Source: an uncultured virus (IMG/VR IMGVR_UViG_3300010429_001259)
Taxonomy: Duplodnaviria > Heunggongvirae > Uroviricota > Caudoviricetes
IMG/VR virus record: IMGVR_UViG_3300010429_001259
Reading direction: 5' to 3' (one strand)
Length of the DNA stretch: 64,000 nucleotides
The notes below the pieces were generated by a model. That model was given only the letters and a program-made list of their open reading frames with translations. It did no database searches and was not told the origin of the DNA. Positions 5,571-62,984 of the stretch are shown one piece after another; within the stretch, counting starts at the first letter, position 1, and every line of letters begins with the position of its first letter. A program made the translations under genes and the position numbers.

Positions 5571-6662
5571 TCAGTCCTCGATTCGGATTGTTTCGCCGAA
5601 CGGTGCAATGACATCAGTTGTCATGCACCACAGCACTGGATAGTTCGGTGGCGTCTTCGGAAAGTTGCCATAACCGTCGGTGAGATAGATGAAACACGCC
5701 GGTGTGATGTTTTTCTCTTCGACGTATTCAAACGGAGGGCAGAAATCAGTGCCACCGCCGCCGTGCATCTTGAACTTCAGTACGTCACCTGTTGTGAATT
5801 CATCGACATGATTTACTTCTGCGTCGCAGTAAACGTTGTAGAGCTTTTCAGGTCGGGTTGCGTCCCAGGCTGCAACGATTTCTGTGCCGAACACATCAAG
5901 TGTTTTTTGGCCGATTGAACCAGATGTGTCGATGGCTACAACCAGTGGTCCCATCTTTTCTGAATACATGCCAGGCAGGTACAAACCTGCAGACAGATAC
6001 CGACGGTTCGGACGCATCCAGCTGTAATCGTCACGGCTGAGTTGGTTCACAAACCGGCGCAGTTGTTCGCGCCAGTTAACCTGGGGTTTTGTGATTTGCT
6101 CAATGAATCGCTCGAGTGTTTGTGGCAATTTGCCGGCCTTCTTGGCTTCGTTTGCCGCCTGGATAGTTGCAAGGACCCACTCGGTCTCCATGACGGCCGA
6201 TTCTGCTGTATCACCGGGGAGAATTTCATCAAGTGCTTCCTCACCTCCTTCGCCACTGCTTCCATCCGGCAACAGGTTGTAGATTTCGTCAGCTGACATG
6301 CCCTTGAACTTGTCGTCGATGAGCCAGTCGTCGCCAAGTGTGAATTTCGAGTCGACCAGAATCTGGTTGAGTGCGTAGTCGCCGGCGACGTTCCATTTCT
6401 TTGGATCGCGTGAGCCGCGGCGACCGATGTGTGCCAGGACGCAATGCATGACTTCATGCGCAACAGCGGATTGTGTGATCTTGTCAGATAACGAGAGCAC
6501 AAAATCCGGGTTGTAGAAGATGTGTTTTCCATCGACGGCCAGCGTCGGGATATCCACGCGTTCGACAAACTGCAGGCGAAGCGCGAGCAGGCCGAAAAAC
6601 CCATGCTCGAGAATCAGCTTTGTACGTGCAAAACTCAACTTTTGCGCAGCTTTTTCGTTCAC
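5571..6662 (-). CDS. metallopeptidase + vWA-like protein (DUF2201 type)
   Basis: HEVMH zincin motif, WNVAGDYALN, MIDAS DTSGS, GGGTDF, YLTDGYG; GTG start after GGAGG. Confidence 0.88.
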   Translation of the reverse strand: MNEKAAQKLSFARTKLILEHGFFGLLALRLQFVERVDIPTLAVDGKHIFYNPDFVLSLSDKITQSAVAHEVMHCVLAHIGRRGSRDPKKWNVAGDYALNQILVDSKFTLGDDWLIDDKFKGMSADEIYNLLPDGSSGEGGEEALDEILPGDTAESAVMETEWVLATIQAANEAKKAGKLPQTLERFIEQITKPQVNWREQLRRFVNQLSRDDYSWMRPNRRYLSAGLYLPGMYSEKMGPLVVAIDTSGSIGQKTLDVFGTEIVAAWDATRPEKLYNVYCDAEVNHVDEFTTGDVLKFKMHGGGGTDFCPPFEYVEEKNITPACFIYLTDGYGNFPKTPPNYPVLWCMTTDVIAPFGETIRIED

Positions 6663-6859
6663 GTTACCTCCTTGACGAGTTGTTTGGTTAGATAAGCAGC
6701 GAAGTCGTGTGGGCGGATAAACATGTATGGCCCGCAAAACGGGCAAGAATCTTCACGGAAGAATGCGCAGTCCATGCTGCCTTTGAAACATGTAAGCGAT
6801 TTAATCGGAACGACTCTTTTCCCTTGTACTCCGATTTCTACTCCGACTTCATAGGTCAT
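6659..6859 (-). CDS. small Cys-rich hypothetical protein
   Basis: 66-aa coupled ORF with a CAF..C..C pattern. Confidence 0.6.
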   Translation of the reverse strand: MTYEVGVEIGVQGKRVVPIKSLTCFKGSMDCAFFREDSCPFCGPYMFIRPHDFAAYLTKQLVKEVT

Positions 6860-7382: not shown

Positions 7383-8161
7383 CGGATTGTCTCCGCTGTG
7401 TTTTGTGCGTGTGCATACACACCCCAGCGAATGTGTGTAGCCATTGCCCGCAGATGCAGCGCTGCGCTTGCGATTTTCTGATCATTCATGACGTTCAGTC
7501 CGTCGAGATGAATAGAAAGAGTCTCAAGTTTCTCGGCAGATACGCCTGAAGAAGATGCAGATACCGAACTATTCAGAAGCTTCAGGATTCGCGCCTGACA
7601 ATCTTCGAAGATCTTCTTTTGCCGGTCAGCAATCGATGCGACGATCTGTTGGCGCACTTCATCCTGTTCATCTGCACCGATCGACGTGCGGAAATCTTCG
7701 GCAGCAGGCACCGGAAAAAATTCCGTGCTGATGCCATAACATGAACGAAGATCTGAAATTGATGGATAGTCGTTCGGGTCGTACAGATGACCCAGCCGAA
7801 CGGCCTCGTGCTGTCGGTTTGAACCGTACCAGCTGAGAAACTCCTCGACAGCTTCTTCGAACTGTTGTTTCAGTCCGCTGATTTTGTCGCGATAGTTCAT
7901 GAAGAACGCTGCAGGCAGCAGACGCTGCCCACCATCAGACCAGGGTAAGGTCATGTGGTAGTGCTGGTTCCGAATACGCGACGCGTAAAGCGCGATAGAA
8001 GCCAGTGTTTCTTTGCGCACCAGCTGTTTGTTGTATCGGCCGGCGTCACTGGACGCATTGGCCAGATTGTTGACGCTGGCCGTAGCAGCACGATCGAATT
8101 TGCGGCCAGTCCATTGATGGATCGTGAGATTCACCAGCATGGCCTTTTCCTGGAGGCTCAT
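7361..8161 (-). CDS. hypothetical protein (DUF3150-like; commonly next to phage AAA/vWA pairs)
   Basis: AMLVNLTI..WTGRKFD..TLPWSDGG.RLLP..DYPS; coupled to the AAA gene. Confidence 0.7.
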   Translation of the reverse strand: MSLQEKAMLVNLTIHQWTGRKFDRAATASVNNLANASSDAGRYNKQLVRKETLASIALYASRIRNQHYHMTLPWSDGGQRLLPAAFFMNYRDKISGLKQQFEEAVEEFLSWYGSNRQHEAVRLGHLYDPNDYPSISDLRSCYGISTEFFPVPAAEDFRTSIGADEQDEVRQQIVASIADRQKKIFEDCQARILKLLNSSVSASSSGVSAEKLETLSIHLDGLNVMNDQKIASAALHLRAMATHIRWGVYAHAQNTAETIRCILTSE

Positions 8162-9153
8162 AACAACACATCCTTGTTCTTGATCAGCCAGGCAATGCCG
8201 ACTTTCGTTTCGGCCAGTTTGTTGTTCAGCTGGATCGCACTGCGCATGAACAAAATCTGAAATTCACGCGGCAAGCGCTCGAGGTACACCAACAGTTTCT
8301 CGAGGTTCGTCGGCGTGGCCTTTTTGTCCAGCATCGTGCACAGTGCGTACTGCGCGGCGGGTGATCCAGGAATCGGAGCACTGGCAGGATCAGCCAGGAT
8401 CTGTTCGGTCGTCGGCAAATCCCGCGCGACGCGTACGAAACTCAGGTATTCGGCCGCAGCACCTTCGCCAACTGTGCCTTTGATGAGCTCAAGTTCGACA
8501 TCAGCGCCCAACGAATGAGTCACAACGATGTCGTCCAGGAACACCCAGGAACGTGGCGTCGGAAATGCGCGTTCGTCAGACGATGGGTCAAAGCTGTGCA
8601 GCAGGCCCGGACGGAACTTGATGAACGCGCGTGTGACGTCCGATACGCCGTTTTTGGTCGCCCAAAGGAACCATTCGTCGGTGTCCACTTCGACGTCGAT
8701 GTGAACGAACCGGTTACGCAAGGCTGTGGACATTGCATGTACCACTGCCCGGTCACCAGCGCGGTTTCCGGCGCCGATTACGGCCCATCCAGGGGGTAGT
8801 TCGTAGTCACCCAGTCGGCGGTCCAGGATGAGCTGATACGCGGCTGCCTGGACGGCCTGGGGGGCGTTGTTAAGCTCGTCCAGGAACAGGATGCCAGAAC
8901 CTTTCGTGGGCAGGAAGTTCGGTGGCACCCAGGCCATGCTCTTGGCCTTTCCGGTGTCGGAGATTGTGGGGAATCCACGCAGATCGACCGGGTCCAGCAT
9001 GGACAGGCGCACATCGCGCAGTTCGATTTTCATCTCGGCAGCGACACTGCGCACGATGTCAGATTTGCCGATGCCGGGCGGGCCCCAGAGAAACACGGGG
9101 CGCTTGCGCTGGGCAAGATGGGTCAGGGATTCTTTGACTTTGGAAGGCTTCAT
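8158..9153 (-). CDS. MoxR-like AAA+ ATPase
   Basis: Walker A GPPGIGKS, DLRGFP, Walker B ILFLDELN, AGN sensor, ALRNRF, TPRSW. Confidence 0.92.
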   Translation of the reverse strand: MKPSKVKESLTHLAQRKRPVFLWGPPGIGKSDIVRSVAAEMKIELRDVRLSMLDPVDLRGFPTISDTGKAKSMAWVPPNFLPTKGSGILFLDELNNAPQAVQAAAYQLILDRRLGDYELPPGWAVIGAGNRAGDRAVVHAMSTALRNRFVHIDVEVDTDEWFLWATKNGVSDVTRAFIKFRPGLLHSFDPSSDERAFPTPRSWVFLDDIVVTHSLGADVELELIKGTVGEGAAAEYLSFVRVARDLPTTEQILADPASAPIPGSPAAQYALCTMLDKKATPTNLEKLLVYLERLPREFQILFMRSAIQLNNKLAETKVGIAWLIKNKDVLL

Positions 9154-9181
9154 GTTGTCCACCTATGAGATTGAGTTATTT

Positions 9182-16033: not shown

Positions 16034-17748
16034 TGGCTACGACTACGAAGACCTCGCCGCGCTCCTCCTCCGTAAAAAAGCGGACACAGCGCGGAACGAC
16101 CAAATCTCGCGCCTCCACTGGTGGTCAACCATCAACCAAGAAGCGCCCCGGACGACCGAAGAAATCGCAGCCCTTGTCGACTCCCTCTGCGTTACCGCAG
16201 GCTCAGGCCGCAGATCCCAAGGCCATAGCAGAGATGGCTCAGCGGGTGCTGGCCAAGCGCCGGCTTCTGCCGTTTGTGAAGCGCCTGAACCCGAACTACC
16301 TGGCCGGATGGGTCCATGAAGACATCTGCCGGCGCCTGGAGAGGTTCAGTGAGGACGTCGAGAAGGGCCTGTCGCCCCGCCTGATGATCCTGATGCCGCC
16401 ACGGAGCGGGAAGAGTGAGCTGGCCAGCCGGATGTTCCCGGCGTGGCACCTGGGGCGGCACCCGGACCACGAAGTGATCTCCTGCGGCTACAACGTGTCG
16501 CTGGCGATGACGTTCAGCCGGAAGGTGAAGGAAGCCCTGGAGAGTCCGGACTACCAGAGTGTCTTCGAGACCCGGCTGCACCCGGACTTTCGGTCGAATG
16601 AGGAGTGGGCTATCGCCGGGCACCGGGGCGGGTACGTTGCTGCCGGTGTGGGCGGTGGTATCACGGGCCGCGGCTGTCACATCCTGATCATCGACGACCC
16701 GATCAAGAATGCCGAGGAGGCGGACAGTGCGGAGACGCGCGAGAAGCTCTGGGATTGGTACGGCTCGACGGCGTACACCCGTCTGGCTCCCGGCGGCGGG
16801 GTGCTGGTGATCCAGACGCACTGGCATGACGACGACCTGGCCGGGCGCCTGAAGCAGGCGATGGCGGCGGACGAGGACGCGGATCAGTTCGTGGTCGTGA
16901 AGTACCCGGCCATCGCGGAGTCGGACGAGTACCTGGACGAGGACACGGACCTGATCGTCTACGACGAGGCGCCGGAGAACGGGCGGCTGCTGCGCCAGAA
17001 GGGCGAGGCGCTGCACCCGGACCGGTACGACCTGCAGAAGCTGAACCGAATCAAGAAGACCTTGCCGAACAGGTTCTGGGCGGCGCTGTACCAGCAGAAC
17101 CCGGTGCCCGATGACGGGGCGTTCTTCACGAAGGATCAGTTCCGGCGCGCGACGCCGCCGAATACGCTGCGCAGTAACGTGTTCGTGGCGTTCGACTTTG
17201 CGATCAGTGAGAAGAAGCAGAACGACTACACGGTCGGTGTGGTCGGGCTGCAGGACGAGGACGACGTGCTGCACGTCGTGGACCTCGTGCGGTTCAAGTC
17301 GGGCGACGGGCTGTATATCGTCGAATCGATCTTGAATCTTTGCAAGAAATGGTATAGTCCGAGCCTGATGCTGGGGTGTGAAGACGGTCAGATCTACCGC
17401 GCACTCGAGTCGCTTCTCAAGAAGCGCATGCGCGAGCGGCAGTTCTACCCGCCGATCACCCTGCTGAAACCCATCACCGACAAGCTGGCCCGGGCAAGAC
17501 CCTTGCAGGGGCGGATGCAGCAGGGGATGGTGAGCTTCCATGACTCCGCGGAGTGGTACGACACCGCCCGCGCCGAGATGCTCCGGTTTCCGGCCGGGGT
17601 CCACGACGATCAGGTGGACGCGCTGGCCTGGATGGCGACGATGGCGGTCGGCCGAGAGGCCCCGCGTAGGCGGCAGACGGAGGCTACAAAGTCATGGCGA
17701 GACAAGTTGAAGGGCCTGGGCGGACAAGTGAGCCACATGGCGGCATGA
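16033..17748 (+). CDS. terL: terminase large subunit
   Basis: MPPRSGKS Walker A, GITGRG, LIIDDPIK, LYQQNP, nuclease DFA...DYTV, FPAGVHDDQVDAL. Confidence 0.96.
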   Translation: MATTTKTSPRSSSVKKRTQRGTTKSRASTGGQPSTKKRPGRPKKSQPLSTPSALPQAQAADPKAIAEMAQRVLAKRRLLPFVKRLNPNYLAGWVHEDICRRLERFSEDVEKGLSPRLMILMPPRSGKSELASRMFPAWHLGRHPDHEVISCGYNVSLAMTFSRKVKEALESPDYQSVFETRLHPDFRSNEEWAIAGHRGGYVAAGVGGGITGRGCHILIIDDPIKNAEEADSAETREKLWDWYGSTAYTRLAPGGGVLVIQTHWHDDDLAGRLKQAMAADEDADQFVVVKYPAIAESDEYLDEDTDLIVYDEAPENGRLLRQKGEALHPDRYDLQKLNRIKKTLPNRFWAALYQQNPVPDDGAFFTKDQFRRATPPNTLRSNVFVAFDFAISEKKQNDYTVGVVGLQDEDDVLHVVDLVRFKSGDGLYIVESILNLCKKWYSPSLMLGCEDGQIYRALESLLKKRMRERQFYPPITLLKPITDKLARARPLQGRMQQGMVSFHDSAEWYDTARAEMLRFPAGVHDDQVDALAWMATMAVGREAPRRRQTEATKSWRDKLKGLGGQVSHMAA

Positions 17749-18107
17749 ACCCCGTCGCCGAGCTCGTCGTCCGGTCGTTTGCGGTCCGTACGTTCTCCCA
17801 CCTCGCGCATCTGCGCTCGCGGTCGTACTCGGAGCACGTAGCCCTCGGAAGTTTCTACGACGACCTGATCCCAGCCGTCGATGAGTTTGTCGAGATTCAC
17901 CAGGCCCAGGGCCTGATCGAAGACTACCCACCCGCGCAGGCCACTGATCTCACAACCCCGCCGGCCGATGCGCTGGCTGAATACCACGACTGGCTCAAGG
18001 ACAACTATGCCGCGTGCTGCGGAGGCGATCCGGCCCTGGAGAACATCATGGACGGGCTGATCGGCCTCACCGCGCGAACGATCTACAAGCTGAAGTTCCT
18101 GAAATGA
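17745..18107 (+). CDS. ferritin/Dps-like four-helix protein (DUF5856-like)
   Basis: HLAH..SYSEHVALGSFYD..DEFVE..LENIMD..YKLKFL; ATGA-coupled to TerL. Confidence 0.75.
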   Translation: MNPVAELVVRSFAVRTFSHLAHLRSRSYSEHVALGSFYDDLIPAVDEFVEIHQAQGLIEDYPPAQATDLTTPPADALAEYHDWLKDNYAACCGGDPALENIMDGLIGLTARTIYKLKFLK

Positions 18108-18113
18108 GTCACT

Positions 18114-20264
18114 ATGCCCATTGACACCAAGATCGCGATGAAGCAATGGACGCGGTACGCATGGTGCCGCGACAACGGGCATGCCCAGTACGTCCAGAAG
18201 GCCGACAAGTGTGATGCTTTCTTCCGGGGCGACCAGTGGGACAAGAACGACAAGGCGAAACTCGACCTCGCCCGCCGCCCGGCCCTGACGATCAACAAGA
18301 TTCTGTCCACCGTGAGCAACGTGATGGGCGAGCAGATCTACAACCGCGCCGAGACGGCGTTCCGGCCACGATCCGGCGCGCCCGCCGAGACTGCTGAAGT
18401 CCTCACGAAGGTGTTCAAGCAGATCAGTGACAACAACCAGCTGGATTGGAAGCGCAGCGACATGTTCGCCGACGGGATCATCACGAGCCGGGGCTATCTG
18501 GACGTGCGGATCGACTACAACGACAGCATGGGCGGCGAGGTGCGCATCGAGGGCCTGAACCCGAAGAACGTGATCCCTGACCCGGACGCCGAGGACATGG
18601 ATCCGGACACCTGGAGCGAGGTGTTCACGACGAAGTGGGTTACCGCCGACGACATCGCGGTCCTGTACTCAAAGGAAGACGCTGAAATCCTGCGCAACCG
18701 GGAACAGAGCTTCTTCCCCTATGGTTACGACAGTATCCAGAGCCACCGCGACCGGTTCGGCGACCGGTTCAACCCGATGTACATGGGCGACTACGATCAC
18801 AGCAACGTGCTGCGGAACATCCGGATCATCGAGCGCCAGTACCGGGTGCTGGACAAGCAGAAGCACTTCGTCAGTCAGGACGGCGACACCCGGCCCGTCC
18901 CGGTGGACTTTGACCGGAACAAGATCGCGTTCTTCACGGAGCGCTACGGGTTCCAGGTCATCACGAAGCTCGTGCGCCGGATCAAGTGGACGGTGATCGC
19001 CGACAACGTCGTGCTGCACGACGACTGGAGCCCGTACAAGCACTTCACCGTGGTGCCGTACTTCCCGTACTTCCGCCACGGTACGACGATCGGGCTGGTC
19101 GAGAACCTGCTGGGCCCGCAGGAACTGCTGAACAAGGCCACGAGTCAGGAGTTGCACGTCATCAACACGACGGCGAACAGTGGCTGGAAGGTGAAGGCCG
19201 GGTCTCTTGTGAACATGACCACGGCAGAGCTCGAAGAGAAGGGCGCGCAGACCGGCCTCGTCGTCGAGACGAACGACATGGACGGCCTGGAGAAGATCCA
19301 GCCGAACGGCGTGCCGACTGGGCTCGACCGGGTGACGTACAAGGCCGAGGAGCACATCAAGACGATCTCCGGCGTGTCTGACAGTGCCATGGGCTTCGAC
19401 CGCGAGGACGTCGCCGCGAAGGCGATCCAGGCCAAGCGCCAGGCCGGCAGCACGAACATCGTCAAGCCGATGGACAACCTGACCCGCTCGGACTTCATCC
19501 TGGCCCGGAACACTTTGGATCTCGTGCAGGAGTTCTACACGGAAGAGCGGATCATGACGATCACGCACAACCGCGTCACGGGCGAGCAGGAGACGTTCAC
19601 CGTGAATCAGGTCACGCCGGAGGGCGATGTCGTCAACGACCTGACTGTGGGTGAGTACGCCGTCGTCGTGACGAGTGTGCCCGCGCGCGAGACCCTCGAA
19701 GATAGCCAGTTCGAGCAGGCGGTGTCGCTGCGCGAAATGGGTGTGGCGATTCCGGACGCCGTACTCATCGACGCCAGCCGGCTGCAGAACAAGCGCGACA
19801 TCATCAGCCAGATGCAGGGTGACCAGAACAGCCCCGAGGCCCAGGCCCAGCGCGAGCTCCAGGCCCGTCAGGCTCAGGCCGAAGTGTCGAAGGCCGAGGG
19901 CGAGGCCGCGCAGAAACACGCTGACGCCGGCCTGAAGCAGGCGAAGGCTCAGAAAGAGATGGTCATGGCCCAGAAGGAGGCGGTCACGCCTCCGGAAGGG
20001 CCGGATGTCGACGACTCGAACCCTGAGCTGGAGTTCGCCAAAGCTGAGCACGAGGCCGGCCTGCGCGAACGGGAGCTCGAGCACAAGCAGCAGATCGATT
20101 GGGCGAAGATCAGTCTGCAGCGCCAGAAGCAGGCGGACGACCTCCGTATGCGCGCACAGGATCAAGCCGCTCAGCGCGCTGAGCGGATGATGGTCGCATC
20201 GGCCGAGGCCGCGGCGGCAGCACAGAAGCCGGATTCCCTTCAACCAACCAAAGGACTACGATGA
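18114..20264 (+). CDS. portal protein (P22-like)
   Basis: FFRGDQW..RPALTINKI, F.DG.I..RGY, PQ..LNK, coiled-coil C-terminal barrel; position after terminase. Confidence 0.9.
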   Translation: MPIDTKIAMKQWTRYAWCRDNGHAQYVQKADKCDAFFRGDQWDKNDKAKLDLARRPALTINKILSTVSNVMGEQIYNRAETAFRPRSGAPAETAEVLTKVFKQISDNNQLDWKRSDMFADGIITSRGYLDVRIDYNDSMGGEVRIEGLNPKNVIPDPDAEDMDPDTWSEVFTTKWVTADDIAVLYSKEDAEILRNREQSFFPYGYDSIQSHRDRFGDRFNPMYMGDYDHSNVLRNIRIIERQYRVLDKQKHFVSQDGDTRPVPVDFDRNKIAFFTERYGFQVITKLVRRIKWTVIADNVVLHDDWSPYKHFTVVPYFPYFRHGTTIGLVENLLGPQELLNKATSQELHVINTTANSGWKVKAGSLVNMTTAELEEKGAQTGLVVETNDMDGLEKIQPNGVPTGLDRVTYKAEEHIKTISGVSDSAMGFDREDVAAKAIQAKRQAGSTNIVKPMDNLTRSDFILARNTLDLVQEFYTEERIMTITHNRVTGEQETFTVNQVTPEGDVVNDLTVGEYAVVVTSVPARETLEDSQFEQAVSLREMGVAIPDAVLIDASRLQNKRDIISQMQGDQNSPEAQAQRELQARQAQAEVSKAEGEAAQKHADAGLKQAKAQKEMVMAQKEAVTPPEGPDVDDSNPELEFAKAEHEAGLRERELEHKQQIDWAKISLQRQKQADDLRMRAQDQAAQRAERMMVASAEAAAAAQKPDSLQPTKGLR

Positions 20265-21268
20265 ACCCTCTCCTGCAGAACCTCCTGCGCCGGTACATGG
20301 CGCCCGCTGGTGACGGCGCCGACCTCGGCGGTGCCGACCGTGGCGACGACTTCGAATCGACAGACCCGGACGAGCCGGGAGAAGTCGAGAAGAAACCCGA
20401 GCCGAAAGCCGCCGACGAAGACGACATCGACCCGGAAGACCCGGACGGTGAGCTGAAGGAGGGCGAGGAGGCCGAGAAGAAGGCCGACAAGCCGAAGAAG
20501 GACAGCCGGATCCCGCTGTCCCGCCACAAGGAGCTCCTGGAGAAGGAGCGGGCGAAGCGCGCCGATCTGGAGCGCCAGCTGGCCCAGTTCCAGAAGGGCG
20601 GGGAAGTCGCCGCCCTGAACGAGAACATCACAAAGGCCGAGGACGACATCCTGAAGCTCGAGAAGGAGTACAACACGCTCCTGGCTGACGGGGAACTCGA
20701 CAAGGCGTCGGCGAAGATGACGGAAATTCGCCGTCTTGAGCGCCAGATCAACGAGTCGCGCAGCGACATGAAGATTGCTGCGGCCGAAGCCCGGGCCACT
20801 GAGCGCGCGCGGTACAACATCGCCCTGGAGCGCATCGAAAGCGTGTATCCGGAGCTGAATCCCGACGACGACACGTACGACGAGGAACTGATGCAGGACG
20901 TCGTGGACCTGAAGGCCGCGTACGAGACCCGCCGGAACATGACCCCGACCGAAGCCATGCAGGCGGCGGTCCGGAAGCTGCTGGGCACCCGTACGAAGAG
21001 CCAGGAGAAGGCGCTGGACACGACTCCGCGCGTCTCCGACAAGGACGTGGCGGACGAAGTGCGCGCCGAACGGAAGAAGGACGCCGTCTCGAAGGCCGTG
21101 AAGGCCGTCGAGAAGCAGCCGCCGAGTACGGCGAAGGTCGGTCTGGACAGCGACAAGGCCGGCGGCGGGCTGTCGGCGAAGGACGTGCTGAAGATGAGTC
21201 AGGAGGACTTCCGGAAACTGCCGGAAGAGATCCTGGCCCGGATGCGCGGGGATGAGGTGGGGGCGTGA
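20261..21268 (+). CDS. capsid scaffolding protein
   Basis: Acidic N-terminus, RIPLSR motif, coiled coil, ends MSQEDFRKLPEE..RMRGD; between portal and capsid. Confidence 0.8.
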   Translation: MNPLLQNLLRRYMAPAGDGADLGGADRGDDFESTDPDEPGEVEKKPEPKAADEDDIDPEDPDGELKEGEEAEKKADKPKKDSRIPLSRHKELLEKERAKRADLERQLAQFQKGGEVAALNENITKAEDDILKLEKEYNTLLADGELDKASAKMTEIRRLERQINESRSDMKIAAAEARATERARYNIALERIESVYPELNPDDDTYDEELMQDVVDLKAAYETRRNMTPTEAMQAAVRKLLGTRTKSQEKALDTTPRVSDKDVADEVRAERKKDAVSKAVKAVEKQPPSTAKVGLDSDKAGGGLSAKDVLKMSQEDFRKLPEEILARMRGDEVGA

Positions 21269-21669
21269 TCATGATGCACATCCCTTCACCCCAGACCGGC
21301 GATCAGGCCATCGAGCAGGCCATCAAAGACGTCGGCGCGGACAAGTACCCGCGCGTGACACCGGCTGACATCGAGGCGAACATCGTCAGTGAGCACTACT
21401 TCACAGCGGCGGAAGGGGTGAATCACTGCGCCAGCGACACGCCGGAATTGGACCTGCTGACCTTCTGCGTCCTGGTCCTGAAGAACGGCTTCACCGTCAC
21501 CGGTGAGTCGGCCTGCGCCAGCCCGGAAAACTTCAACGCCGAGATCGGACGTCGGATCGCCCGCGAGAACGCCGTGCAGAAGATGTGGCCGTTGATGGGC
21601 TATGCGCTGCGGCAACACCTCCATACCATGGAGTTGGTGGACGCTGCAATCGACGGGGGAGAAGCATGA
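21265..21669 (+). CDS. N4 gp49 / Sf6 gp66 family protein (candidate Acb4-type sponge)
   Basis: PRVTP.DIEA.I..EHYF, TFCVLVLKNGFTVTGESACASPENFNAEIGRRIA..A..K.WPLMGY signature. Confidence 0.85.
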   Translation: MIMMHIPSPQTGDQAIEQAIKDVGADKYPRVTPADIEANIVSEHYFTAAEGVNHCASDTPELDLLTFCVLVLKNGFTVTGESACASPENFNAEIGRRIARENAVQKMWPLMGYALRQHLHTMELVDAAIDGGEA

Positions 21670-22025
21670 AATCCCTCGCTCACTCCATCGCCCGCGTCGC
21701 CCACGAGGTGAACGCCGCCTACTGCCGCAGCCTCGGTGACTACACCCAGCCTGCGTGGGAGAACGCCCCTGAATGGCAGCAGAAGAGCGCCATCGCCGGC
21801 GCTGAACTGCACCTGAGCGATCCGTCACTCTCGGCCTCGGCGTCTCATGCCGCCTGGATGGCGATCAAAGTCGCCGAAGGCTGGGTCTACGGCCCCGAAA
21901 AGGACACCGAGAAGAAGACCCACCCGTGTCTCGTGCCGTTCGACGAGCTACCGCCCGAGCAGCGCGCGAAGGACTTCATCTTTCAGGGCGTTGTGCACGC
22001 GATCGCGCGCGAGATGGCTCGATAG
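21666..22025 (+). CDS. RyR-domain protein
   Basis: H.AW...K...GWVYGPEKD..KKTHPCLVPFDELP.EQR.KD matches the RyR repeat signature. Confidence 0.85.
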   Translation: MKSLAHSIARVAHEVNAAYCRSLGDYTQPAWENAPEWQQKSAIAGAELHLSDPSLSASASHAAWMAIKVAEGWVYGPEKDTEKKTHPCLVPFDELPPEQRAKDFIFQGVVHAIAREMAR

Positions 22026-22066
22026 CCGCACCAGTTGTCTCCCCCGGAGGGCTTCGGCCCACCATT

Positions 22067-22100
22067 GAGCCACGGCAAGCACTTGTCGTGGCTCTTTTTT
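22067..22100 (+). terminator. intrinsic terminator
   Basis: GAGCCACGGCAA-GCAC-TTGTCGTGGCTC followed by T6. Confidence 0.75.
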
Positions 22101-22110
22101 CGAGTACACT
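22083..22110 (+). promoter_or_regulatory. possible sigma70 promoter for the capsid gene
   Basis: TTGTCG-16 nt-TACACT overlapping the terminator, about 110 nt upstream of the capsid ATG. Confidence 0.35.
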
Positions 22111-22218
22111 ACGGCCAATTCGGTAAAGGCAAGGTCCCGACAGCACCTACCACCTCCGCATGTCGAAGCGACATTCGACAGAGAAGTCGTTTATCTATCA
22201 TCGATAGGAGGTGCCACC

Positions 22219-23331
22219 ATGGCATTGACCAATTTTGGACTGCTGACGTCCGAACAAAAAACCGTATGGGGAATGACCCTGTGGAAACAGGCTCGCAACC
22301 ATTCGTTCATCAACCGCTTTCTGGGCAAAGGCCCGAATAGCCTGGTCCAGCACATCACCGAGCTGAAGAAGTCCGAGAAGGGCGCCCGCGCAGTCATCAC
22401 GCTGCTGGCCGACTTGACCGGTGACGGCGTGGCCGGTGACCGCACCCTGGAAGGCAACGAAGAGGCGATGCAGACCTTTGATCAGGTCATTCGCATCGAC
22501 CAACTGCGTCACGCCAACCGCCACGAAGGCCGCATGGCCGACCAGAAGTCGATCGTCGAGTTCCGCGGCAACAGCCGCGACGTGCTGGCCTACTGGCTCG
22601 CCGACCGTATCGACCAGCTGGCGTTCCTGACGATGTCGGGTGTCTCCTACACGAAGAAGAACAACGGCGCGACCCGCACCGGTTCTGATCTTCCGTTCCT
22701 GGAGTTCGCTGCGGACGTCGCCGCGCCATCGGCCAACCGCCGCCTGCGCTGGGACGGCACTGGTAAGACCCTGGTCGCCAGCGCCGCCACCAGTTCGATC
22801 GCGTCGACCGACACGCCGACCTGGAACATGTTCGTGCAACTCAAGGCCTACGCCAAGGACCGCTACATCCGCGGCATCCAGGAAGACGGCGGTGAGGAGA
22901 CCTTCCACGCGTTCCTGACTCCGCAGGCCATGGCCAAGCTGAAGATGGACGACAACTACATGCTGAACCTGCGGCACAGCCAGCAGCGCGACAAAAACGA
23001 CGCGCTGTTCAGCGGCACCAGCGTGAAGATTGACGGCATCTACCTGCACGAGTTCCGGCACGTCTATAACACGTCCGGCGCGGCCAGCGGCTCGAAGTGG
23101 GGCGGTTCCAGCACCACCGACGGCTGCCAGGTCTTGTTCTGCGGCGCCCAGGCGCTCGGTATGGCCGACATCGGCGCACCGGAGTGGAACGAGAAGGGCT
23201 TCGACTACGAGAACCAGCAGGGTATCTCCGTCGGCAAGATCCTCGGCTTCCTGAAGCCGAAGTTCGGCAACATCTACGAGAACGGTTCCGTCGAAGACTT
23301 CGGCGTGATCTCGTGCTACGTGGCGCAGTAA
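22219..23331 (+). CDS. major capsid protein (DUF4043 / N4-gp56-like)
   Basis: ELKKS.KG..A..TL..DL.GDGV.GD.TLEGNEE, IDQLRHA, LFCGAQAL; strong AGGAGG RBS. Confidence 0.92.
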   Translation: MALTNFGLLTSEQKTVWGMTLWKQARNHSFINRFLGKGPNSLVQHITELKKSEKGARAVITLLADLTGDGVAGDRTLEGNEEAMQTFDQVIRIDQLRHANRHEGRMADQKSIVEFRGNSRDVLAYWLADRIDQLAFLTMSGVSYTKKNNGATRTGSDLPFLEFAADVAAPSANRRLRWDGTGKTLVASAATSSIASTDTPTWNMFVQLKAYAKDRYIRGIQEDGGEETFHAFLTPQAMAKLKMDDNYMLNLRHSQQRDKNDALFSGTSVKIDGIYLHEFRHVYNTSGAASGSKWGGSSTTDGCQVLFCGAQALGMADIGAPEWNEKGFDYENQQGISVGKILGFLKPKFGNIYENGSVEDFGVISCYVAQ

Positions 23332-23346
23332 GAAAGGAGCCTTGAA

Positions 23347-23757
23347 ATGGCCAATACCACCCTGACCCCTTCGCGCGGTCGCCAGTACCCGCTGTACGCG
23401 GAAGTGTCGTTCACGTTCGGTAACGTCGCTGACACCGGCGTCGCCGTGCCGGCGATCAAGCTGCCGCCCGGCGCCGTCGTCATTGACGGTGCTGTGATCG
23501 TGGACACCGTCTTCAACACCGGCACGTCCATCGTGCTGGATGTGGGCGACTCCACGACCGGCAACCGCTACAAGAACGATGCGGACCTGAAGTCCTCGAC
23601 CGGTGTGATTGCCCTGGTTCCGACCGGGTACGTCAGCGACGGCGCGGACATCCTGATCACTCCGACGATCGTCGGGGCCGCGGCCACCACCGGTGCCGCC
23701 CGCCTCTGGGTCGCATACGTGATCCAGGGTCGTACCCACGAAGTTCAGACGAACTAA
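23347..23757 (+). CDS. putative capsid decoration protein
   Basis: Beta-rich, LPPGAVV..G.V.V.T.FN..LDVGD; directly after the capsid gene. Confidence 0.65.
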   Translation: MANTTLTPSRGRQYPLYAEVSFTFGNVADTGVAVPAIKLPPGAVVIDGAVIVDTVFNTGTSIVLDVGDSTTGNRYKNDADLKSSTGVIALVPTGYVSDGADILITPTIVGAAATTGAARLWVAYVIQGRTHEVQTN

Positions 23758-23767
23758 GTGACCGAAG

Positions 23768-23791
23768 AAACGGGGCCTTCGGGCCCCGTTT
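23768..23791 (+). terminator. intrinsic terminator
   Basis: AAACGGGGCC-TTCG-GGCCCCGTTT. Confidence 0.75.
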
Positions 23792-23816
23792 CCACATCTT
23801 TGACTGAGAGGAACAC

Positions 23817-24191
23817 ATGAATTTCATCCTGAATCGTGACCGCACCGTCGTATCGACATTGGGGCACTCTGTCGAGTTCAAGAAAGGCGTGCCGACGTAC
23901 GTGCCGCCCGAGTTGTATGCCGAGGTGTCCGCCGTTGGCGCCATGCCCGAGCACGAACTGACCGAGGAAGAGGTCAAGAAGACCGCACCGGCCGAACCGG
24001 CTGATCCGGCTGAACGCGAAGCCGCCGTGTTCGCGGCGTTCGAAGGGATCATGCTGCGCGGCCGTCGCGAAGACTTCACCGCCGGTGGCGCTCCGCACCC
24101 GAAGGTCCTGGCGCAAGCCCTGGGCTGGACGCTGCACAACAAAGAGCGCGACATCCTCTGGGCGAAGTTCCGCGCCGGTTCCGAGGACTAA
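23817..24191 (+). CDS. hypothetical virion-block protein
   Basis: 124-aa ORF, GAGG RBS. Confidence 0.75.
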   Translation: MNFILNRDRTVVSTLGHSVEFKKGVPTYVPPELYAEVSAVGAMPEHELTEEEVKKTAPAEPADPAEREAAVFAAFEGIMLRGRREDFTAGGAPHPKVLAQALGWTLHNKERDILWAKFRAGSED

Positions 24192-24194
24192 ACC

Positions 24195-24851
24195 ATGAAC
24201 TCCACAGAACTGCTTGCTGCATTTCGAGATGAAATGTTCGATACGGTCGAGCCGTATCTGTGGAGTGACGCGTTCGTCTATCGTGCGATCGACGACGCGC
24301 AGAAGATGTTCTGCCGGCTCACGGAGGGCATCGAGGATGCGCGCACCGCTGACATCACGGTCCTTCCGATCGAAGTCGGCACGGACTGGTACACCCTGTC
24401 TCCGCTCATTCTGAAGCCCCGGTTCGCCCACCGGGCCGACAACGGCCGTCCAGTGCGGATCGTCGGGGCAGAACTGTGTGACAAGCTCGGCATCCAGTTC
24501 GATGGTTCAACCGGGCCGGTGACGGCGCTCGTGACAGGCCTTGAGAAAGGCGCCGTGCGCGTGTGGCCGATGCCGAACGAGACGGTTGACCTGAACCTCT
24601 CCGTATTCCGTCTGCCGCTCGAGCCGATCACGGACGTCGGTGACCAGACCCTGGAGATCGACGAACAGCATCACTGGCACCTGCTCGATTGGGTCAAGCA
24701 CCTGGCCTACCTGAAGCCCGATCCTGAGACCCTCAACCGCAAGACGGCCGGCGAGTATGAGCAGGCGTTCCGCACCTATTGCGCCCAGGCCCGAATCGAG
24801 CAGGGCAGAGTGCGCCATCCCGCCGGCGCAGTCGCGTACGGCGGACTTTGA
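24195..24851 (+). CDS. putative head-tail adaptor/completion protein
   Basis: FRDEM.D..EPYLWSD..IDDAQ..FCR, EI.E.HH..LLDW...AY.KPD; position after head genes. Confidence 0.65.
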   Translation: MNSTELLAAFRDEMFDTVEPYLWSDAFVYRAIDDAQKMFCRLTEGIEDARTADITVLPIEVGTDWYTLSPLILKPRFAHRADNGRPVRIVGAELCDKLGIQFDGSTGPVTALVTGLEKGAVRVWPMPNETVDLNLSVFRLPLEPITDVGDQTLEIDEQHHWHLLDWVKHLAYLKPDPETLNRKTAGEYEQAFRTYCAQARIEQGRVRHPAGAVAYGGL

Positions 24852-24867
24852 ACGGAGAAAACCTACC

Positions 24868-25272
24868 ATGTCCCTGTCCAACACCACCGAACTGGCCGCT
24901 TTGGCCATGTTCCTGCAAGGCACCGACCCGAGCTACCGAGCCGGCGCCACCCAGTACCTGGCCCTGTTCACGGCTGACCCGACCGAAACCGGATCCCTGG
25001 CCGCCGAAGCCACCTACACCGGCTACGCCCGCGTGGCGCTGACCAAGGCATCGGCGTGGACCGGTGGCGCCAACCCGTTCGTCAACGCCAACCTGATCCA
25101 GTTCGGCGCCTGCACAGCAGGGTCCAACGCGATCACCCACTTTGCCGTGGTGGACACCGCTTCCGGGGCCGTCAACATGATGATCTCTGGCGCGCTGTCG
25201 TCCACGCTCAACGTGAGCGCCGGCATCCAGCCGCAGTTCGCTGCGGGCGCTCTGAGCGTTTCGGCGGACTGA
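24868..25272 (+). CDS. virion structural (tail-associated) protein
   Basis: YLALFTADP.E.G...EATYTGYARVA pattern. Confidence 0.7.
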   Translation: MSLSNTTELAALAMFLQGTDPSYRAGATQYLALFTADPTETGSLAAEATYTGYARVALTKASAWTGGANPFVNANLIQFGACTAGSNAITHFAVVDTASGAVNMMISGALSSTLNVSAGIQPQFAAGALSVSAD

Positions 25273-25276
25273 CACC

Positions 25277-26179
25277 ATGGCCGGCTTCTCGAACGCTGCG
25301 GCTTGGGCGGCGGCGGTCGATGCCGGGAAAACACACGTCAGTACGTTCCGCAAGACCGTCGCCAGCGCCGCGACAGCGGCCAACGACTTTGTGGACTACA
25401 CCTACTTCGCCGGCAACCCACCGGCGAACTTCTACGCCAGCGCGCCGCTTGAGGCCGCGTATGTCGAGAGCATCCGGGGCATCCATGTCCCGCAGATGTC
25501 AGGTGATGACCGGCAGTTTCTGAAGTCCATCACTGCCATGTCGGCAGCGGCCAGTGCCACGGGCACCAGCAACCAGAACCAGCGCCAGATGCTGGCGGAC
25601 TACCTGATGTACTACCCGTTCATCGATACCGATGCCGTCGGGGAGTTGCAGGAGACTTCGCCTATCGTGGCGTTGCCTCGGTACAACTCAGGACAAGTGA
25701 TCTGCGTGGCGCAGTCGGCCTCAAGCACGGTCGGCCAGTTCACGATGACCTACACCAACCAGGATGGTGTACCGGGCCGCGTCAGTCAGAACACCTTCAC
25801 CAAGGTCGTTTCCGGTGGTGGCACGCTGGTGTCCAGTGCTACCAGTGCCGCTGCAGGCAGCCTGCCATTCGTCGGGCTGCAGGCAGGCGATTCCGGGGTG
25901 CGATCCATCGAATCCGTGACCTTCACGGCCGCGGGCGGTGGCCTGATGGCGCTGGTGATCGTGGAGCCGCTGTTCAACTTCTACACCACGCAGGAGTGCC
26001 GCACCACCACCACCGGCAACATCGAGAGCTACGGAGCGGCCACCTACTTCGAGACTGTACTGATGCGCCAGCCGGTCGAAATCAAGAACGGCGCGGTGCT
26101 GGGCGTCGTTGGCCTGGGCAACGCTGGCAGTCTCGCGTCGTCGGTCTTGGTCGGCACCATCCAAACCATCTGGAGTTAA
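25277..26179 (+). CDS. virion structural protein (paralog of the next gene)
   Basis: 300 aa, TYTNQDG..G and PF..LQAGD.GVRSIES.T. Confidence 0.75.
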   Translation: MAGFSNAAAWAAAVDAGKTHVSTFRKTVASAATAANDFVDYTYFAGNPPANFYASAPLEAAYVESIRGIHVPQMSGDDRQFLKSITAMSAAASATGTSNQNQRQMLADYLMYYPFIDTDAVGELQETSPIVALPRYNSGQVICVAQSASSTVGQFTMTYTNQDGVPGRVSQNTFTKVVSGGGTLVSSATSAAAGSLPFVGLQAGDSGVRSIESVTFTAAGGGLMALVIVEPLFNFYTTQECRTTTTGNIESYGAATYFETVLMRQPVEIKNGAVLGVVGLGNAGSLASSVLVGTIQTIWS

Positions 26180-62495: not shown

Positions 62496-62984
62496 CTACA
62501 CAGCTTGGTTCTTGGGCCAGCCGGCCCTCACAAAGTCCGCCACGACATTGGCAATCGCCGGCAGGTTACGGGTCTTCGTTTCTTCTGCCGGCAGATATTT
62601 CGCAAACTCCGGAAACATCTCGGCCAAAGCTTTGGTGGTCGTCGCGCTGGCTGCAGCCTGTTCAAGCTGGTTGCGAAGCCTGCTGAGCGCGAGACTTTGT
62701 TCTTTTTCCAGTTGTTTGAGCCGATCCATCGCCTGGATGTCTTCGGCGTGAAATGCAGCGTGTTTGCGAGGAAATGGTCCGTAACCATACCATTGACCAA
62801 TGCATGCCCATTCAAGTTCGAACCAGTCAGGGTACTTGTCGTATACCGCGGCAATCTCCCACGGCATCATCGCGCGGCCGATCCGATTGGCTTCCCTTTG
62901 CATCTGGTCGATGTAGTCGACGCTCGGCACGTCATTCATGACACTGTTCACGAACGCGCTACGGATGGAATTGGTAAGTCTCAC
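62496..62984 (-). CDS. Nmad5-like (nucleotide-modification-associated) protein
   Basis: MRLTN.IR..., L.......T.K.L.E.FPE..KYLP. Confidence 0.65.
   Translation of the reverse strand: MRLTNSIRSAFVNSVMNDVPSVDYIDQMQREANRIGRAMMPWEIAAVYDKYPDWFELEWACIGQWYGYGPFPRKHAAFHAEDIQAMDRLKQLEKEQSLALSRLRNQLEQAAASATTTKALAEMFPEFAKYLPAEETKTRNLPAIANVVADFVRAGWPKNQAV

Follow-up and report, generated by a model that had tools for sequence, protein, structure and literature searches.

The window, a stretch of 64,000 nucleotides from an uncultured virus whose full record runs to 66,333 bases, carries the following features in its head-gene region.

18114-20264, + strand: P22-like portal gene (Pfam), flanking the region of ORF A and ORF B
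20261..21268, + strand: probable scaffold protein gene (335 aa), placed between the portal and capsid genes
21265..21669, + strand: ORF A, Acb4-family protein (134 aa, PF13876 match), predicted cyclic-dinucleotide sponge
21666..22025, + strand: ORF B, stand-alone RyR-domain protein (119 aa, PF02026 match), predicted cADPR sponge
22067..22100, + strand: intrinsic-terminator-like hairpin with a 12-bp stem and a run of six T
22083..22110, + strand: probable sigma-70-type promoter for the capsid gene (TTGTCG, 16 nt, TACACT), overlapping the terminator
22132..22179, + strand: conserved leader of the capsid gene; its two hairpins have CGA(C/T/G)A loops (alignment of 34 leaders)
22219..23331, + strand: major capsid protein gene (PF13252, 138 bits)

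The two coupled small genes that the initial annotation saw between scaffold and capsid are there as described: both lie on the + strand, the end of the scaffold gene overlaps the start of ORF A by four bases (GTGA), and the end of ORF A overlaps the start of ORF B by another four (ATGA). ORF A begins at GTG, with ATG codons at 21271 and 21274 as other possible starts. The GC3 values of ORF A and ORF B are 0.83 and 0.82, and those of six flanking genes span 0.78-0.88. The capsid protein is 64% identical to the capsids of KPP25 and phiR18 (Kochitakasuvirus). The label ‘scaffold’ comes from the location of the gene, since the 335-aa product of 20261-21268 has no match in Pfam or PHROG; a homologue of the gene is seen in 76 of the 80 related loci used here, the best 80 out of 270 capsid-related loci in IMG/VR. 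Naming the host through the capsid relatives was tried and set aside, as these assemblies are mostly Comamonadaceae and, at ~50% identity, too remote.

Outside the head genes, a DUF5856 gene (17694-18107; PHROG 858, labelled starvation-inducible regulator) lies between terminase and portal; it is kept in many relatives and missing from some, and near relatives in runs X1 and X9 carry 141 additional bases directly after it. The lower-GC minus-strand arm holds a MoxR-like AAA ATPase and its DUF2201 metallopeptidase-vWA partner and, in the same arm, an Nmad5 domain gene (jointly 5571-6746, 8158-9162 and 62496-62984).

ORF A matches PF13876 at 118.4 bits against a curated Pfam cut-off of 27, and an Acb4 structure, that of SPO1 gp1.3 (PDB 9E4W), with an E value of 0.0014. 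Both comparisons agree with the earlier placement of the gene in a gp49/66 family that includes Acb4, PF13876 being the Acb4 family of Chang et al. (bioRxiv 10.1101/2024.12.30.630793). Acb4 is described there as a tetramer that binds 3'3'-cGAMP at about 157 nM; this ligand is bound by all eight homologues tested, one of which has an N-terminal stretch much like that of ORF A (supplement of the same preprint). N4 Acb4 is reported to bind c-di-AMP at 111 nM. ORF A is 46% identical to N4 Acb4 across 96 aa and 39% identical to SPO1 Acb4 across 49 aa, and differs from both in an N-terminal extension of about 25 residues and in its head-module location. The Acb4-Sequestin protein Ab09 gp59 is another known relative with PF13876.

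Residues F48, G52, S54, F62, N63, I66 and G67 of the SPO1 protein are also present in ORF A. When the SPO1 pocket set of K36, F48, E49, V56, Y57, F62, N63, I66, T70 and K81 is compared, four of the ten positions are identical (F76, F90, N91 and I94 of ORF A), so that the stacking F48 and the adenine-side F62, N63 and I66 (SPO1 numbering) are retained; V56 is replaced by C, and K36, E49, Y57, T70 and K81 are missing, the same five that N4 Acb4 lacks. ORF A is likely to bind cyclic dinucleotides; with half of the SPO1 pocket missing, as in N4 Acb4, the comparison points to no preferred one among them.

ORF B matches the RyR family (PF02026, Repeat12-like) at 46.8 bits, with a Pfam cut-off of 27.4, and the structure of RyDEP (PDB 35TM) with an E value of 5.7e-11; 30 of its 30 Atlas feature matches fall within the RyR set. 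The initial annotation stated that RyR domains can bind adenine nucleotides, and in the published work phage RyR-domain proteins are indeed anti-Thoeris proteins, mostly sponges of cADPR isomers (bioRxiv 10.64898/2026.05.28.727677, 10.64898/2026.06.04.730250). One of these, RyR Tad, is gp68 of Pectobacterium phage vB_PatP_CB1, a 3'cADPR sponge (43 nM) that contacts its ligand through H129, W132, K147, H154, K170 and D171 (Fedorova et al., bioRxiv 10.64898/2026.06.04.730250). ORF B has PF02026 in common with this protein and is 53% identical to it across 107 aa; all six contacts are present, as H61, W64, K79, H86, K102 and D103, at a constant offset of 68, and none of the six varies among the 18 distinct RyR proteins of the hotspot described below, ORF B counted. 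CB1 gp68 differs in having an N-terminal domain, whereas ORF B is stand-alone, like the RyDEP homologue H4, to which it is 45% identical across 118 aa. H4 and H7, sponge-type homologues of RyDEP, are among the closest known relatives of ORF B (bioRxiv 10.64898/2026.05.28.727677). Another difference is in the setting, since ORF B lies in a head module and RyR Tad-type relatives adjoin primase or polymerase genes.

RyDEP itself (Mycobacterium phage DyoEdafos gp78) is a RyR-domain glycosidase for 2'/3'cADPR (Lopez Rivera et al., bioRxiv 10.64898/2026.05.28.727677), so ORF B might cleave 2'/3'cADPR to ADP-ribose rather than just hold it. The two proteins belong to one fold family, the catalytic dyad H75/D117 of RyDEP corresponds to H61/D103 of ORF B, and equivalents of W78 and H100 are present as well. 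The dyad does not discriminate enzyme from sponge, however, because the non-cleaving homologues H4 and CB1 gp68 have it too. At three positions where RyDEP has Q54, R93 and D102, ORF B has S41, K79 and C88, as do both sponges, and its alignments to the sponges extend over 107-118 aa but to RyDEP (43% identity) over just 68 aa. RyDEP, in this respect alone in its family as the founding member, is set in a NARP1 NAD-rebuilding operon, whereas the neighbours of ORF B are head genes, and no NARP1 enzyme is matched by Pfam among 90 window ORFs scanned (2.3 kb of the record lies outside the window). Among the eight RyDEP homologues tested by Lopez Rivera et al., six bound cADPR, two did not and none cleaved it. 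A tree of the RyR proteins, mostly unresolved with 2 of 21 branches well supported, decides nothing between sponge and enzyme. On this evidence a glycosidase is very unlikely, and ORF B is likely to be a sponge. Its ligand is likely to be 3'/2'cADPR and not a CBASS signal, so that, of the earlier suggestion of a sponge for CBASS/Thoeris signals, the Thoeris part is supported, with the ligand residues kept, and the CBASS part is not, the published ligands being cADPR isomers. The suggestion was also not new, as RyDEP and RyR Tad already appear in 2026 preprints.

The hairpin at 22067..22100 had been taken as the gene pair's own terminator. Its position is kept in 66 of the 76 related loci, with 0 of 76 for control windows inside the capsid gene, and it is present in all nine loci where the gap between scaffold and capsid is empty. 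A terminator belonging to the cassette is ruled out by these nine loci, which show it to be ancestral, with the genes inserted ahead of it; it closes the portal-scaffold unit and is older than the inserted genes. Terminator-like sites across the region as a whole number four, not above the 6.5 +/- 2.8 of shuffled sequences.

The capsid gene probably has a promoter of its own. The candidate has 8 of 12 consensus matches, which is under the threshold of the scanner, and a sigma-70 scan of 17000-26000 gave no site at threshold; by eye, most of the 34 aligned leaders have a TAnnnT-like hexamer after the T run. Further down, the second leader hairpin shows two-sided changes at six of six pairs (20 sequences), and the first was judged by eye alone. 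Rfam has no match in 20000-24000. The two hairpins could be a protein-binding translational control element; the leader is conserved in the capsid leaders of L004-L079. Four RNA-library runs hold contigs of a roughly 96% identical relative, and contig X1 spans scaffold, ORF A, ORF B and capsid, but with one depth figure per contig, and DNA a possible source, they are uninformative on transcription. The proposed co-expression with head proteins holds in part: ORF A and ORF B are coupled to the scaffold gene, whereas the capsid gene is set apart from them by the terminator and, probably, by a promoter of its own.

How variable the inserted genes are can be seen among the best 80 of the 270 IMG/VR loci. 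Both the scaffold-capsid and the portal-scaffold gap were surveyed, with gap genes called by a codon-model caller and 129 of 133 distinct proteins scanned with Pfam; lineages are clusters of 95% capsid identity with the window's own genome left out (n=53). Among these best 80 loci, the scaffold-capsid gap ranges from 179 to 4521 bases. A known sponge family occurs in 36 of the 53 lineages, two or more families in 15; another 11 have other genes exclusively and six have no gene in either gap. The sponge families are Acb4, RyR, Tad2 (PF11195), Sequestin (PF21825, according to Tal et al.), the Acb2/Tad1 hairpin and Tad1, the last through a homologue that matches PDB 8KBB with an E value of 4e-27. 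Content varies inside 5 of 15 multi-member lineages of this sample, and the sole difference between L057 and L063 is an acb4 gene, with flanks 90-96% identical. The gaps flanking the scaffold gene in KPP25-like podoviruses are a sponge hotspot, with fixed core flanks and variable content enriched for six sponge families, in which single genes are gained or lost between close relatives.

Five family searches over 40 longer contigs (1.53 Mb) gave 43 matches, 40 of them in the two gaps. With the window's own copy removed (39 other contigs) the figure is 38 of 41, in gaps that make up 3.8% of the 1.53 Mb, an enrichment that is inflated because the contigs were chosen through the capsid gene. In a near-complete set (ten contigs at least 90% complete, with KPP25, AP1 and phiA008), 6 of 11 matches are in the gaps. 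Matches outside the gaps include Acb4 upstream of the terminase genes in KPP25, Tad2 and Acb4 behind the lysis genes in AP1, and RyR and Acb4 side by side amid replication-type genes in G013. A strong Acb4 or RyR match is present at three of 29 capsid loci (mostly about 50% identical) taken from prokaryote assemblies; a survey anchored on RyR gave 11 loci, a number too small for statistics. Sponges are not the only content of the slot: 61 of the 111 genes called there are outside the known sponge families, lysis and tail-like genes included.

A comparable arrangement is known from N4-like phages, whose hotspot lies between the primase and the virion RNA polymerase genes and holds swappable Acb4, Tad2, Sequestin, RyR and fusions of these, as here (Fedorova et al.). 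The KPP25-like slot differs: it belongs to another phage group, has head genes around it and a conserved terminator behind it, and also holds Tad1 and an undescribed sponge-fused domain, c3.

Some further tenants may be noted. A 65-aa family in four loci (L028:3766-3960, L033:5259-5453, L035:2099-2293 and L082:5640-5834) has no Pfam or PHROG match and always adjoins an Acb4, Sequestin or Acb2/Tad1 hairpin gene. A family of 124-126 aa with conserved cysteines (L009:2965-3342, L044:866-1237), likewise without a Pfam or PHROG match, adjoins Acb4 in L009, L010 and L038. L041:5370-5669 is a stand-alone phrog_419-type domain in the slot; phrog_419 also has an Acb4 match, in its C-terminal part, a hint of a further domain that is fused to sponges. 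In the related contigs L107 and L108 (2932-3321 in each) the RyR gene is broken over two reading frames.

Within this slot the two genes of the window are not a dedicated pair, as had been supposed. Acb4 is present in 22 of the 53 lineages, RyR in 15 and both in eight (Fisher p 0.36), so a specific Acb4-RyR pairing was rejected; clustering at 90% capsid identity gives p 0.48. Co-occurrence of CBASS-type with Thoeris-type families is also not significant (p 0.27), and of ten loci compared for gene order seven have Acb4 first and three RyR first. Acb4-RyR fusions do occur, in L064, Maynard gp85 and phiEa2809 gp88, and Acb4-Tad2 fusions are also found in the slot (Pfam). The last two fusions, at L088:1485-2321 and L089:1461-2333, are H8 (phiEa2809 gp88), one of the tested RyDEP homologues, and Maynard gp85, which is closely related to H6. 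The RyR part alone was cloned there, and Acb4 goes unmentioned in the main text of that preprint (bioRxiv 10.64898/2026.05.28.727677). In phage 8P, L002:6001-6861 combines RyR with a 170-aa C-terminal part and lies between post-capsid structural genes.

The location among head genes and the translational coupling to the scaffold gene could mean that ORF A and ORF B are required head structural or assembly components with no immune role, and one homologue carries the GenBank label ‘minor head protein’. That homologue, however, sits amid DNA polymerase and recombination genes, and neither family is named in a passage that lists 11 structural proteins of podophage A1002. A required structural role is extremely unlikely because three cultured relatives, KPP25, AP1 and phiA008, have nothing between scaffold and capsid; the six lineages with both gaps empty (among the best 80 of 270 loci) also argue against it.

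The location would also be explained if the two proteins were sponges carried inside the head and released when the next cell is infected. There is a precedent in phiKZ gp184/Tad1 (PDB 8Y6V match), reported as a non-essential minor capsid protein that is injected in the next round; this sponge being capsid-associated, association with the capsid would not in itself refute a sponge role. The RyR domain of phage 8P, moreover, is fused to a longer protein within the head module. Against packaging, other phages have these families amid replication genes or in further modules, ORF B does not extend past its RyR domain, and a common transcript would account for six unrelated folds in one slot better than a common packaging signal. 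We regard packaging as unlikely. Most probably, ORF A and ORF B are accessory genes for nucleotide sponges in an interchangeable slot, ORF A acting on the cyclic dinucleotides of CBASS and ORF B on the 3'cADPR of Thoeris.

Insertion ahead of the terminator would put a gene on the portal-scaffold transcript, translationally coupled, so that the sponge would accumulate in the cytoplasm while heads start assembling. By analogy with other systems, this may be the stage at which capsid-sensing Thoeris and late-acting CBASS are set off: staphylococcal Thoeris is activated by major capsid proteins, and phages that escape CBASS are reported to be changed in prohead protease, capsid and tail fibre. The sponges, which like their solved relatives would form a tetramer (ORF A) and a dimer (ORF B), would bind the alarm nucleotides before effectors can. 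Late timing is not a trait of the Acb4 family, since SPO1 Acb4 activity arises early in infection (bioRxiv 10.1101/2024.12.30.630793). The content of the slot would turn over with host defences, and Acb4 may be lost where it sets off Panoptes-type traps; it is reported to trigger Panoptes and PanDA, which makes this a plausible reason for its loss.

The c3 domain, absent from the window, is about 90 aa long and is the third most frequent of the unknown slot tenants (examples are L068:4796-5068, L016:3299-3607 and L018:5036-5368). It occurs in eight loci (L068, L016, L013, L014, L018, L049, L054 and L011), always beside Acb4 or RyR, and adjoins a known sponge in seven of seven lineages (p 0.04). 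It matches the N-terminal part of phrog_2293, has no Pfam or PDB match, and compared by eye is unlike Acb5A/B or LockinA. Sponge domains are carried by 27 of 46 longer c3 homologues, namely Acb4 in 20, Tad2 in four, Sequestin in two and RyR in one, and no other Pfam family is found in these 46; five of the fusions were re-checked, and L156 is a triple fusion of c3, Acb4 and RyR. The same fusion test, with this outcome, led to Sequestin. In the supplements of Tal et al., as far as accessible, the c3 motif appears just in the table of Sequestin homologues (eight motif matches). The Atlas neighbours of c3 are unnamed, one being fused to PF13876. Beyond the KPP25-like group, a known sponge lies within 1 kb of c3 or is fused to it in 4 of 30 loci, and in phages Sopo and PA8 c3 lies amid head genes with no known sponge there. 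L039:5130-5393, L044:313-582 and L009:4412-4687 resemble distant relatives of c3. The combined proposal, that the scaffold-adjacent slot is an undescribed anti-signalling hotspot timing sponges to head assembly and that c3 is a new sponge family, is tentative, and we put it at a little short of an even chance.

Both families were already characterised, Acb4 in 2024 and RyDEP and RyR Tad in the 2026 preprints, so the original guess of sponges for the gene pair is likely to be right but is not new at the family level. By themselves, ORF A and ORF B extend published families by one ordinary protein each and contribute little. The new element is the head-module site, which is a variant of the known idea of a hotspot, in a phage group and a module that are both new for it. 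No description of this site or of c3 was found in the literature searched, which had most subscription papers beyond its reach, and neither is in the accessible text of a review from October 2026 that covers seven sponge families.

With more than half of its genes outside the known families, the slot is a circumscribed region in which new inhibitors of nucleotide-based immune signals can be sought. It also poses a question of timing, whether phages place sponges on the transcript for head assembly on account of head proteins setting off CBASS and Thoeris, and one of turnover, whether Acb4 may come and go because Panoptes-type systems punish it.
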